A stretch of DNA of 64,000 nt, taken from contig CANJXC010000007.1 in the NCBI GenBank assembly GCA_947478845.1, positions 49,939 through 113,938 of the forward strand. The letters run 5' to 3'. This stretch comes from Spirochaetales bacterium. Lineage in GTDB: Bacteria > Spirochaetota > Spirochaetia > JABEVK01. The position numbers and the translations under genes are program-made. Below, piece by piece: positions 22,385-27,002 of the stretch (position 1 is the stretch's first letter; each line of letters opens with the position of its first letter). The notes beneath the pieces are model-generated. The model ran no database searches. It was not told the DNA's origin and saw only the letters and a program-made list of their open reading frames with translations.

Positions 22385-24505
22385 CTACTTGGTTGCCCGT
22401 CGACGCACCACCAGGTCGTGCTTCACTGCCTTGCGGTCAAGTTCGGAGGCTTGGCGCATGCGGTGCTGGAAGATTCCTTGGGCGCGTCGTTCTTCCTCGA
22501 GAACGCCATTCTCGTCGAGTGAGGGCTGGCTTCTCTTCCACGTGCCATCGCTTTGCAGAGTGTGAGCTTTCACGTTGTCGCGGAATAGAACTTCCAGAGA
22601 GTCGGTAACCTTTTCTTTCAGATTGGCCTGAAGCACGGGAAACATGAGTTCGACGCGGCGCTCCAAATTGCGAAACATCCAGTCGGCAGAACTCAAGTAC
22701 ACATCTTCCAGTTCGCCGGCGCGGAACACAAAGACTCGGGCGTGCTCAAGGTAGCGGTCGACGATGCTGATGACGTGGATGTTTTGGGAAAACTCCTTGC
22801 CTGGTACGAGCATGCAGATACCACGCACATTGAGGCGGATGGTCACGCCCGCTTCCGAGGCCCGGTACAGCGAGCGGATGACATCATCGTCTGCCAAAGA
22901 GTTCAATTTGGCGGTAATGCTGCACCTGACCCCGAGGTTGGCCTGCCGGGTGAGGCCGTCGATGAGCGCAATGAGGCGGCCTTTCATGTAGTGTGGGGCC
23001 ATCACCAGATGGCGCATTTTGCTGATGGCCGAGTATCCGGTAATCGCATTGAAAAACTGGGCGACTTCATGGGTAAACTCGGGCCTTGCCGTAAGAAGAC
23101 CGAAGTCTGTATACAATCTTGCTGTTTTGTCGTGGTAGTTGCCCGTGCCAAGGTGAGCATAACGCCGGATTCCATCACTTTCCCGTCGGACAATTAAACA
23201 GGCCTTCGCATGCACTTTGAGGCCTGCAATACCGTAAATGACAATCCCCCCTGCCTGCTCCAGAGTCTGTGCCCAGCCCATGTTCTGCTGTTCGTCAAAA
23301 CGTGCCTTGAGTTCCACGAGCACTGTAACTTGCTTGCCTTCCATGGCCGCTTGTGCCAATGCCTGAACCACAGGCGAATCACCCGAAGTGCGGTAAAGCG
23401 TCATTCGAATCGACAAGACGTCGGGATCAGTTGCCGCTTCGGAAAGCAGCCTGACCAGCGGCGAGAACGACTCGTAAGGGTGGAAAAGTAAATGGTCTTC
23501 CTGCCGGATGAGCTCCCACAAATCCTCGTCATCCGAAAGCGTACGTCGACTAGTCCAAGCGGGGTACTTTAGGTCGTCGTACCCGGGCATAAGAGCGAGG
23601 CTCATAAGGTCTTTGAGGTTCAGCGGGCCGTCGAAGGAGTACACCAGCGAAGGATCCACATCGAGCGCCGCGATTAACCTCGATAGAAGTTCGGGGGAAC
23701 CGCCGGTGACTTCCAGCCGCATGGGGTTGGAATGCAGACGCCCCTGAAGAATTTTTCCCATGGCCTCCACAAAGTCTTCTTCTTTGTCTTCATCGACGGC
23801 AATGTCGGCGTCGCGGGTGATGCGGAACGTGAGACGGTCGACGATCCGGTAGCCAGGCACCAGATTGTCGGCCAGGTCGGCAATCATATCTTCCACAAAA
23901 GTGAAGCTGCGGCCACCACGGGTTTCCGGCAGCCAAACGATACGGCTCAAGTAGGGAGGAATTTCGAGCACAATCATTTTGCAATCCGTAAGGCTGAACT
24001 TGACCTCGCCGGTGGGCACGATCAAAAACGCGAGGTTCATGCGCAGATTTCCTGTGAAAGGGAAGGGGCGTTTTTCTTCCACTTTCACAGGGGAAAGCAC
24101 ATTGAAGAGTTCTTTCTGGTGAAACTCCCGCACGTAAGCCAAATGTTCTTGTGTGTAGTCCTGCTGAGCCGTTACCCGGATTCCCAAATCGGTAAGCTGC
24201 TGGCTCAGTTCCTTCCAAAGGCCATATTGTTCGCTGTAGGTTTCGCGGCAGCGGTCCTGCACTAGGCGCAGAGTCTCCGACGGGAGCAGTCCTCCCTGCG
24301 CATAGCTCCGGTCGCCACTTTTGATGGCCCGCCTCAAGGAGGCTACCCTCACCATGAAGAACTCGTCGAAGTTGCTGCTCACGATAGAGAGAAACTTCAC
24401 TTTCTCGAGAAGAGGGACTGAGGTTTGTCTGGCCTCATCAAGTACCCTTCGGTTGAAATCGATCCAGCTCAATTCGCGGTTAAAAAACTCTTGCGCATGT
24501 TCCAT
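22385..24505 (-). CDS. ppk1: Polyphosphate kinase 1
   Basis: Canonical PPK1 N-terminus (FFNRELSWIDFNRRVLDEA). 706 aa, with phospholipase-D-like C-terminal domains. Confidence 0.9.
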   Translation of the reverse strand: MEHAQEFFNRELSWIDFNRRVLDEARQTSVPLLEKVKFLSIVSSNFDEFFMVRVASLRRAIKSGDRSYAQGGLLPSETLRLVQDRCRETYSEQYGLWKELSQQLTDLGIRVTAQQDYTQEHLAYVREFHQKELFNVLSPVKVEEKRPFPFTGNLRMNLAFLIVPTGEVKFSLTDCKMIVLEIPPYLSRIVWLPETRGGRSFTFVEDMIADLADNLVPGYRIVDRLTFRITRDADIAVDEDKEEDFVEAMGKILQGRLHSNPMRLEVTGGSPELLSRLIAALDVDPSLVYSFDGPLNLKDLMSLALMPGYDDLKYPAWTSRRTLSDDEDLWELIRQEDHLLFHPYESFSPLVRLLSEAATDPDVLSIRMTLYRTSGDSPVVQALAQAAMEGKQVTVLVELKARFDEQQNMGWAQTLEQAGGIVIYGIAGLKVHAKACLIVRRESDGIRRYAHLGTGNYHDKTARLYTDFGLLTARPEFTHEVAQFFNAITGYSAISKMRHLVMAPHYMKGRLIALIDGLTRQANLGVRCSITAKLNSLADDDVIRSLYRASEAGVTIRLNVRGICMLVPGKEFSQNIHVISIVDRYLEHARVFVFRAGELEDVYLSSADWMFRNLERRVELMFPVLQANLKEKVTDSLEVLFRDNVKAHTLQSDGTWKRSQPSLDENGVLEEERRAQGIFQHRMRQASELDRKAVKHDLVVRRRATK

Positions 24506-24513
24506 AGGATTCC

Positions 24514-26043: not shown

Positions 26044-27002
26044 AGGCTACGGCGCGCCAAATCCGCGCTGCCGATAAGGCTGGCATTGTCGCCCAACGTT
26101 GCCACCTTCACCTCGGCATCCTCAGCCACGAAAGCCCAGGCGGTTCTTCTCATGGCCTTCTCAACCCGCTTTAAGTAGTAATCACCGAGCTTTTCCACCA
26201 AGCCGCCACCGATAAGGACCAATTGCGGATTGAGAAGATTGATGCACCCGCCGATGTGGACTCCCAGAAGTTCGGCCGCACGGTCGATGATGCCCTTCAC
26301 GGCGGCGTTGTCTTCCTTGAGTCCCTGGGAGAAGTACTTGGAGCTGATGGCTTTAAGGTCGGCTCCGTTTTCGGCGAAGGTTCCTGTCAGGGTTCCGTTG
26401 GCCACCAAACCAGCAGCTTCCTTGCTCATGGCTGCCCGACTGGCCAAGGCTTCGATGCAACCCCGCTGACCACAGCCGCAAAGCGGGCCTTCCAACTGGA
26501 TAATCATGTGCCCAATTTCGCCGGCATTACCACCTGCGCCCACGTACAGCTGGCCGTTGGCGATGATGCCGCCGCCGATTCCTGTGCCGGGGAACACCCC
26601 AAGAACGTGTTGGTAGCCCCGGGCCGCACCTGCCACATATTCGCCCCACACACCAGCGTTTACGTCGTTCTCAAGAAAGACGTGAAAACCGAACTCGGCC
26701 TTCAGGCGGTCTACGAGCGGAAAATCATAGAACCCCATATTGGGTGAGCGTACCATCACGCCCTTCGCGCGGTCCATTATGCCAGGTACAGCCATTCCTA
26801 CCGCTTTGATGTCGGAGGCTTTCTTGCCACTCTCGCGCAACACATCCTTCAGCGTTTCTACAATATCGCTGTAGACGGCTTCATGCCCTTCCTGCGTGAG
26901 GCTCTTGCGCTTCACCTTGGCGGAGACCTGCTGGTCGGCGCTCACCAACCCTGCGATCATCTTGGTACCGCCCAAGTCAAATCCGATGAAATTATCTGAC
27001 AT
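26040..27002 (-). CDS. ROK-family sugar kinase (glucokinase; possibly polyphosphate-dependent)
   Basis: GFDLGGTK ATP motif. ROK zinc motif CGCGQRGCIE. The stop overlaps the ppx start, so the two are co-transcribed. Confidence 0.8.
   Translation of the reverse strand: MSDNFIGFDLGGTKMIAGLVSADQQVSAKVKRKSLTQEGHEAVYSDIVETLKDVLRESGKKASDIKAVGMAVPGIMDRAKGVMVRSPNMGFYDFPLVDRLKAEFGFHVFLENDVNAGVWGEYVAGAARGYQHVLGVFPGTGIGGGIIANGQLYVGAGGNAGEIGHMIIQLEGPLCGCGQRGCIEALASRAAMSKEAAGLVANGTLTGTFAENGADLKAISSKYFSQGLKEDNAAVKGIIDRAAELLGVHIGGCINLLNPQLVLIGGGLVEKLGDYYLKRVEKAMRRTAWAFVAEDAEVKVATLGDNASLIGSADLARRSL

Follow-up and report, generated by a model that had tools for sequence, protein, structure and literature searches.

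A zinc-type ROK-family kinase gene conserved upstream of exopolyphosphatase and polyphosphate kinase genes in at least six bacterial phyla

Direct phosphorylation of glucose by inorganic polyphosphate (polyP) is known from one small enzyme clade, most of whose members are actinobacterial, with a few other groups represented, and the return of polyP stores into central metabolism is poorly understood in most other bacteria. To our knowledge, the genes of this clade, the polyP glucokinases (PPGKs) and polyP glucomannokinases (PPGMKs; EC 2.7.1.63), have no conserved ppx–ppk1 neighbourhood. Here we analyse a 64,000-nt stretch of DNA from an uncultured Spirochaetales bacterium (contig CANJXC010000007.1, positions 49,939–113,938; hereafter the window), in which a gene for a ROK-family sugar kinase is directly followed by a gene for a probable long-form exopolyphosphatase (PPX) of the Ppx/GppA family and a gene for polyphosphate kinase 1 (PPK1). 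We find the same gene order in at least six phyla. The kinase, which a preliminary description of the locus had put forward as a candidate PPGK, lies outside the PPGK clade.

PPGKs and PPGMKs, such as Arthrobacter 1WOQ, Mycobacterium tuberculosis Rv2702, Anabaena All1371 and Methylomonas polyP-Glk, have the ROK/ASKHA fold in common with the window kinase, and both have a DxGGT phosphate-1 loop, a catalytic Asp, a GTG phosphate-2 loop and an ExGH sugar motif; each is physiologically connected to polyP. In contrast to the window kinase, however, which has 320 amino acids, PPGKs have only around 240–270, and they lack both the CXCGXXGCXE motif and the helical segment of roughly 55 residues that the window kinase carries. 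Zinc-type ROK ATP-glucokinases (the Bacillus subtilis GlcK type, including 2QM1 from Enterococcus faecalis, 3VGK from Streptomyces griseus and 3VOV from Thermus thermophilus) share their architecture, zinc motif and catalytic residues with the window kinase, which is nevertheless only about 31% identical to them, scores under the cut-off of the glucokinase model TIGR00744 and belongs to a separate clade. Systematic linkage or fusion to polyP genes is a property of the subfamily of the window kinase and has not been reported for the classical glucokinases.

The two polyP genes also have described counterparts. In Escherichia coli, ppk and ppx form an operon without any kinase (PMC3163519). As in the window, PPK1 and a long-form PPX are encoded there by adjacent, co-directional genes, and their opposing activities are presumably regulated after translation; the order is ppk then ppx, whereas in the window ppx precedes ppk1 and a sugar kinase gene is the conserved first member, so the window cluster is not an operon of the E. 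coli type. The ppx1–ppk–ppx2 cluster of Lactobacillaceae resembles the window in having a Ppx/GppA-family gene immediately upstream of ppk, and differs from it in lacking a ROK kinase, in having two ppx genes and in belonging to another phylum. Its upstream Ppx1 has been reported to be essential for polyP accumulation (bioRxiv 10.1101/2023.12.22.573107), and thus a PPX partner upstream of ppk need not be purely degradative.

The components of the window cluster are thus known families, and the ppk–ppx operon is classical; what appears to be new is the ROK gene as its conserved first member, a ROK–PPX fusion and variants with CHAD and DUF498 domains. We found no description of the cluster, the fusion or these variants in the open-access full-text literature, an absence that is not proof, and the PPGK clade is the only one named in recent reviews on glucose kinases or on the distribution of polyP. 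The explanation that we favour, tentatively, is that rok–ppx–ppk1 is a conserved operon in which a nucleotide-dependent hexose kinase is coupled to polyP mobilisation, buffered by PPK1 and PPX.

Conservation of the gene order across phyla

Homologues of the window kinase at 73, 69, 57, 52 and 49% identity, on unrelated contigs with differing flanks, all have PPX and PPK1 genes directly downstream. To survey the arrangement broadly, we aligned the kinase against one genome per GTDB species, which gave 80 loci at 38–73% identity, and scored PPX and PPK1 by tblastn with the window proteins within flanks of 7–10 kb. A complete ROK–PPX–PPK1 triad on one strand was present at 61 of the 80 loci. The contig ended after ROK–PPX at three loci, ROK–PPX was not followed by PPK1 at three others (all Schlesneria) and ROK stood alone at nine; the remaining four were uninformative, as the contig ends after ROK. 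The complete triads come from Spirochaetota (30), Planctomycetota (11), Verrucomicrobiota (10), Lentisphaerota (3), Fibrobacterota (2), Riflebacteria (1) and Terriglobales of the Acidobacteriota (1), with three more from genomes labelled only 'bacterium'. The triad order is therefore conserved in at least six phyla, and its recurrence in so large a share of species-level genomes means that it is not due to chance.

The genes are closely spaced, with median gaps of 30 nt between ROK and PPX and 14 nt between PPX and PPK1, and with overlaps, many of them of 4 nt, in 20 and 17 cases, respectively; within Spirochaetota the medians are −4 nt, as in the window, and 10.5 nt. When the open reading frames (ORFs) of the flanks were clustered, ROK, PPX and PPK1 were the sole families conserved across loci, and the next commonest family belonged to a single spirochaete lineage, in which it occurred at 15 loci. 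Neighbour-joining groups the linked kinases into one clade, whose sister is an unlinked group from Chloroflexota and Blastocatellia, and the classical glucokinases fall outside.

These data bear on an explanation without biochemical coupling, in which the kinase is a housekeeping glucokinase that has no more than a promoter in common with ppx–ppk1, as in a nutrient-upshift or stringent-response regulon, or in which the cassette has been kept by descent or spread by lateral transfer. Conservation within Spirochaetota could indeed be largely vertical, but between phyla the triad keeps its order and tight spacing although all of the flanking genes differ. Subfamily members without polyP neighbours, at nine of the 80 genome loci and in most of the broader metagenome sample described below, speak for such an explanation, as does the lack of a visible sequence difference between unlinked and linked members, and the E. 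coli operon shows that ppk and ppx can go without a kinase (PMC3163519). Co-regulation alone, however, makes it hard to explain why ROK and PPX are fused and why polyP genes accompany the kinase in such varied geometries (convergent ppx–ppk1, CHAD upstream, short PPX alone), and we consider it unlikely.

Some of the loci have further features of their own. Among related spirochaetes, the gene after ppk1 can be a co-directional transketolase gene (loci L001, L003, L004 and L010–L012), or a 2-keto-3-deoxy-6-phosphogluconate aldolase gene lies immediately ahead of the kinase gene (L007 and L008), neighbours that place the kinase in central sugar metabolism. A metagenome-assembled genome (MAG) from a sulfidic cave titled 'Borreliella garinii' (L014) has a triad of the free-living-spirochaete type, with 52% identity to the window kinase, and its label is probably wrong. 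The kinase of a MAG labelled Lentisphaeria (L013; 48% identity) falls inside the spirochaete clade, a position that suggests either that the triad was transferred laterally or that the MAG was misbinned.

Family membership of the kinase and its partners

The window kinase matches the Pfam ROK model PF00480 with 218.7 bits (threshold 22.9) and contains the motifs of ROK kinases: DLGGTK (D9–K14), NDVN with the catalytic D113, GTGIGGG (T140), EIGH (E162 and H165), the zinc motif CGCGQRGCIE at 175–184 (C175, C177, C182 and E184) and GGG at 265–267. Its ORF begins five residues ahead of strand 1 and encodes no N-terminal DNA-binding domain. The AMP-PNP complex of Plesiomonas shigelloides NagK (PsNagK) has assigned residue roles in metal and phosphate binding and as the base (PMC10031466), and the catalytic and phosphate-binding residues of the window kinase correspond to those of PsNagK in an alignment. 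Judged by its sequence, the protein is thus a catalytically complete, nucleotide-type ROK hexose kinase. Its top NCBIfam match is TIGR00744 (ROK_glcA_fam), although its 199 bits fall short of the cut-off of 260; all other sugar-kinase models score lower. The best sequence matches in the PDB are the glucokinases 2QM1, 3VGK and 3VOV (E values from 1e-43 to 1e-37), which are also the top folds retrieved by Foldseek with an AlphaFold model of the kinase (pLDDT 93; TMq 0.80–0.85). Glucose is most probably its sugar.

Membership in the PPGK clade was assessed with the NCBIfam PPGK model NF045942 and with the Arthrobacter polyP/ATP-glucomannokinase 1WOQ, the sequence of which was taken from the PDB. 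The kinase scores only 29.6 bits against NF045942, whose cut-off is 250, and the match covers residues 6–169, the N-terminal half; a phmmer comparison with 1WOQ (E = 2e-5) is likewise confined to the N-terminal half. Aligned with the window kinase, 1WOQ shows no counterpart of the zinc motif or of the roughly 55 residues that follow, both of which the window kinase has in common with ATP-glucokinases. Characterised polyP-glucokinases, proteobacterial ones included, lack the CXCGXXGCXE motif (PMC6406325). PPGKs have seven motifs in common and two tryptophans, Trp193 and Trp198, that are reported to be essential in M. tuberculosis (PMC4252912); the only tryptophans of the window kinase, W119 and W288, both lie outside the region aligned to them, in what is a soft, alignment-based test. 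Among the Foldseek matches of the kinase model, 1WOQ ranks 50th (TMq 0.67, 22% identity). Model score, zinc motif, the segment of roughly 55 residues, tryptophans and fold rank together exclude the kinase from the PPGK/PPGMK family. The alignment with characterised PPGKs that the preliminary description had proposed as a check therefore goes against its candidate, as the PPGK-specific regions are absent. This corrects an annotation trap: a ROK gene adjoining ppk need not encode a PPGK.

Exclusion from the PPGK clade does not by itself settle the phosphoryl donor, as the donor of zinc-type ROK glucokinases varies (ATP, GTP and even ADP) and is not predicted by sequence (PMC3766608). The ribose-binding Glu of PsNagK (E196) is uninformative as a marker of nucleotide use, being replaced by Val in the ATP-glucokinases 2QM1 and 3VGK. 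The clade of the window kinase has its own signature relative to the classical glucokinases (M15, V114, G117, G135, F137, P138, G203, L268, E270, D305 and K/R33). No sequence signature separates its polyP-linked from its unlinked members, however, as the clade-specific residues are common to the unlinked sister sequences. Nor is there an extra basic patch specific to linked members: the conserved K/R31, K/R33 and R189 all occur in unlinked members too, R189 is probably the usual ROK arginine displaced by one alignment column, and position 31 is also basic in 3VGK and 1WOQ.

The partner proteins are recognisable to different degrees. PPK1 matches TIGR03705 with 775 bits (cut-off 466), contains the PP_kinase_N, middle, C1 and C2 domains, matches the solved PPK1s 2O8R and 1XDO with roughly 400 bits each and aligns with them at the VHAK histidine motif. 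The product of the middle gene meets the Pfam thresholds for the Ppx-GppA domain (106 bits) and domain III (104 bits), has the motifs GIEEN and EVGGGSTE and finds its best PDB matches among exopolyphosphatases, with 8JGO at the top, but it misses the cut-off of every NCBIfam PPX or GppA equivalog (147 versus 307, 121 versus 864 and 102 versus 624 bits). It is probably an exopolyphosphatase, with polyP and pppGpp as alternative candidate substrates, and the activity of both PPX and PPK1 is plausible.

The missed cut-offs, in PPX as in the kinase, and the names under which NCBI lists a near-identical kinase ('ROK family protein') and the PPX homologue ('HD domain-containing protein') leave some room for another role. 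The ROK protein might act on another sugar (mannose, glucosamine, an N-acetylhexosamine or fructose), or it might be a sugar sensor that modulates a Ppx/GppA protein, perhaps one acting on pppGpp. Glucokinases are nevertheless the best matches in sequence and fold by a clear margin, the motifs for ATP binding and catalysis are preserved, as they are not in many ROK regulators, and the PPK1 and CHAD neighbours indicate polyP rather than (p)ppGpp. We regard such a role as improbable, the most so of the explanations weighed here.

The subfamily also includes other architectures. Tandem ROK–ROK proteins were identified by Pfam scan (P0169, P0178, P0183 and P0215; 654–687 amino acids), and in a further five proteins (P0184, P0199, P0208, P0245 and P0268; 647–682 amino acids) the query matched in two stretches. 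Other ROK proteins of roughly 388–390 amino acids have an HHH_5 domain (P0316–P0320), and a 569-amino-acid protein (P0162) is extended at its N terminus by 250 residues that match no Pfam model.

PPX fusions and putative polyP-binding neighbours

A search of 1.84 billion representative proteins revealed a 639-amino-acid protein in which a ROK domain (residues 14–326) is fused to a Ppx-GppA domain (residues 354–632). Such ROK–PPX fusions form six distinct 90%-identity clusters (636–659 amino acids, mutually 71–100% identical), and a partial protein labelled Anaerolineae also has both domains. Three of the clusters could be placed on contigs, four in all, from three NCBI assemblies and one metagenome sample; the fusion is not an artefact. 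In the fused PPX the P-loop reads DVGGGAME instead of GGGSTE. PPK1 did not adjoin the fusion in the three loci with identifiable downstream genes. The Anaerolineae fusions (P0177 and P0310–P0314; loci L089–L091, at 7001–8926 in L089) also have a small coiled-coil-like ORF upstream. They are preceded, in addition, by a tandem pair of genes that was considered as PPK2 and rejected, since both genes match the thymidylate kinase family (PF02223).

An independent metagenome sample, seeded from another branch of the kinase subfamily, adds further arrangements. A long PPX and PPK1 lie directly downstream of ROK on the same strand at six loci, a short PPX of roughly 290 amino acids takes this position, without PPK1, at another six, and PPX is directly downstream at eight more, most of which are truncated by the contig end. 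At L097, L102, L103, L108, L124 and L172, ppx–ppk1 or ppk1 lies nearby in another geometry (convergent, or with ppk1 upstream), including convergent ppx–ppk1 pairs that adjoin ROK-DUF498 genes. Many subfamily members with ample flanks have no polyP gene nearby and serve as an internal control. The constant neighbour of the kinase is thus PPX, not PPK1.

Many members of the subfamily carry a C-terminal DUF498 domain (ROK-DUF498, roughly 450–470 amino acids). CHAD has been described as a polyP-granule-binding module. In the one ROK-DUF498 lineage that we inspected by gene table (L092 and L093, 5610–8371), a gene for a CHAD-domain protein (PF05235, 164 bits) lies upstream of the ROK-DUF498 gene and overlaps it by 4 nt. 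At L102, where a convergent ppx–ppk1 pair is found downstream of the kinase gene, a CHAD-like stretch (65 bits against the CHAD protein of L092) lies roughly 300 nt upstream of the pair on the same strand. In the Riflebacteria genome (L040), a 194-amino-acid lysine-rich ORF with KAKTKAK-type repeats (8939–9631) stands between ROK and PPX; it has a likeness to histone-H1/AlgP-like polyP-granule proteins. The long ROK–PPX gaps were also checked for a hidden DUF498 gene, and none was found.

These arrangements, which link the subfamily to polyP-handling proteins through three independent kinds of context (triad, fusion and CHAD overlap), give reason to consider that the kinase takes phosphate directly from polyP, alone or alongside ATP or GTP, and shares the polyP chain with PPX, yielding glucose-6-phosphate and orthophosphate (Pi). 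A fusion usually joins enzymes of one pathway or with a common substrate, and here fusions of ROK to PPX recur; PPX, rather than PPK1, is the constant partner; the triad order spans at least six phyla; a polyP-binding CHAD gene overlaps ROK-DUF498, and a lysine-rich repeat ORF separates ROK from PPX in Riflebacteria. The donor of a ROK glucokinase, moreover, is unreadable from sequence (PMC3766608). On the other hand, characterised polyP-glucokinases all belong to one shorter, zinc-less clade (PMC6406325, PMC4252912), the window kinase fails the PPGK model, motifs and fold ranking, and no conserved residue or basic patch is particular to the linked members. Furthermore, if the kinase is the main glucokinase, strict dependence on polyP would make the entire glucose flux rely on PPK1 without saving energy. 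We consider direct use of polyP possible, although less probable than use of a nucleotide. If it occurred, it would constitute a second, independent lineage of polyP-dependent hexokinases, within the zinc-type ROK glucokinases. With similar reserve, the whole subfamily could be a second widespread family of polyP-utilising hexose kinases, unrelated to the actinobacterial PPGK clade and working at the polyP granule together with PPX, either fused to it or recruited through CHAD or DUF498.

Genomic setting and possible role of the cluster

The positions of the window cluster and its surroundings are given in Table 1. They bear out the three tightly coupled minus-strand genes of the preliminary description, down to the ATGA overlap and the 8-nt spacer, and place them in a longer same-strand run of five genes (SpoU-type, omptin-like, ROK, ppx and ppk1). 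A GAGGA Shine–Dalgarno-like sequence (24515–24511) ahead of ppk1 overlaps the ppx stop codon, and an AAGGAGA Shine–Dalgarno sequence (27017–27011) lies 8 nt ahead of the ROK ATG, in a spacer that has no room for a terminator plus a promoter.

Table 1 Features of the window (coordinates are positions in the window)
Feature	Position	Strand	Description
ppk1, PPK1 gene	22385–24505	minus	706 amino acids, four domains
ppx stop and ppx–ppk1 spacer	24506–24516	minus	ppx stop TGA 24516–24514; 8-nt spacer ggaatcct 24513–24506; ppk1 ATG at 24505
ppx, long-form Ppx/GppA-family phosphatase gene	24514–26043	minus	509 amino acids; catalytic domains I–II and HD-like domain III
ATGA overlap of ROK stop and ppx start	26043–26040	minus	translational coupling
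ROK-family sugar kinase gene	26040–27002	minus	320 amino acids; zinc-type, glucokinase-like
Spacer between omptin-like gene and ROK	27003–27029	minus	27 nt
Omptin-like outer-membrane beta-barrel protein gene	27030–27968	minus	PF01278, 47 bits; 27 nt upstream of ROK
SpoU/TrmH-type RNA methyltransferase gene	27978–28670	minus	first gene of the co-directional run; 9 nt ahead of the omptin-like gene
Divergent intergenic region	28671–28708	none	38 nt; no other non-coding gap upstream of the kinase gene exceeds 27 nt
TAtT-like gene	21498–22367		downstream of ppk1, convergent
NAD(P)-binding protein gene, then crcB fluoride exporter gene	28709–29782		divergent from the five-gene run
Beta-1,3-glucan (laminarin) utilisation locus	51721–63979		
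Apparent rare-sugar utilisation cluster	3802–12593		
Long intergenic gap	14160–14550		391 nt; no Rfam or tRNA match
Long intergenic gap	45238–45769		532 nt; no Rfam or tRNA match
Long intergenic gap	46691–46971		281 nt; no Rfam or tRNA match

The five genes may form one transcription unit leaving the divergent intergenic region, which is the putative promoter region of the run. A consensus scan of 21800–29200 found no promoter-like (sigma-70) site and no excess of terminator-like sites over shuffled sequence, and is evidence neither for nor against internal promoters. The omptin-like gene lies upstream of ROK in the closest relatives only (loci L001, L002, L003 and L009) and the SpoU-type gene is present only in L001, L002 and L009; the omptin-like gene is a lineage-specific passenger outside the conserved unit, and the SpoU-type gene is likewise lineage-specific. 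The same proteins are present in public collections, from an uncultured Spirochaetales MAG, where automatic annotation names them glucokinase or ROK family protein, exopolyphosphatase/GppA or HD domain protein, and polyphosphate kinase. Searches of the whole window with Rfam at gathering thresholds and with a tRNA scan gave no match, a fluoride riboswitch included.

The window also encodes ABC sugar importers and a route by which free glucose could reach the kinase. The beta-1,3-glucan locus comprises an ABC (ATP-binding cassette) sugar-binding protein with two permeases, a GH149 beta-1,3-glucan phosphorylase (1222 bits against a cut-off of 1150), two GH16 proteins, a Big_2 protein and a GH17-like protein (27.7 bits, just under the Pfam threshold of 28.2), as well as a 392-amino-acid ROK-family NagC-like protein, which has weak matches only and is a probable regulator. 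Phosphorolysis of glucan consumes Pi and frees glucose, and thus calls for a cytoplasmic kinase. Elsewhere in the window, a D-psicose 3-epimerase (449 bits against a cut-off of 300), a GntR/LacI-type regulator, a sugar ABC transporter and a xylulokinase-like FGGY kinase (315 versus 380 bits) together look like a rare-sugar utilisation cluster.

We infer the sugar substrate, phosphoryl donor, co-transcription and physiological role of the triad as follows. The rok, ppx and ppk1 genes would be transcribed together. The kinase would phosphorylate imported glucose with a nucleoside triphosphate, like its closest characterised relatives, and PPK1, running in reverse, would regenerate ATP or GTP from polyP and ADP or GDP. 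PPX would release Pi, replacing that trapped in sugar phosphates and supplying what lower glycolysis and glucan phosphorylases need. Acting together, the three enzymes could allow a starved cell to restart sugar catabolism from its polyP store. We favour a nucleotide as the donor because of homology, the lack of a sequence signature specific to linked members and the flux logic given above. Of the two options offered by the preliminary description, the data best support the weaker, a coordination of polyP turnover with the entry of sugar into glycolysis. Its broader claim, that the genetic link between kinase and polyP turnover is functional, gains from the tight unit, from the spread of the triad over at least six phyla and from the fusions and CHAD neighbours, whereas its reading of the kinase as PPGK-type does not hold.

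Several observations weigh against this explanation. If PPK1 recycled ATP for the kinase, a tighter tie to PPK1 would be expected, and yet the kinase keeps to PPX first, with ROK–PPX found without PPK1 in Schlesneria, in the short-PPX lineages and in the Anaerolineae fusions. The overlap of CHAD and ROK-DUF498 genes hints at a kinase that acts at polyP itself. The donor of zinc-type ROK glucokinases is variable and not predictable from sequence (PMC3766608), and the score under the TIGR00744 cut-off (199 versus 260 bits) makes the sugar substrate uncertain.

Whichever donor is used, one ROK subfamily is associated with polyP genes in many phyla, through an operon with ppx–ppk1, fusion to PPX or adjacency to CHAD. 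If the donor is a nucleotide, the cluster would be a defined module that draws on polyP to buffer ATP and Pi where glycolysis begins. If it is polyP, the subfamily would be a new family of polyP-dependent sugar kinases, useful for ATP-free phosphorylation of sugars in biocatalysis, and spirochaetes, the Planctomycetota–Verrucomicrobiota–Lentisphaerota group, Fibrobacterota and others could use polyP in place of ATP to prime glycolysis.

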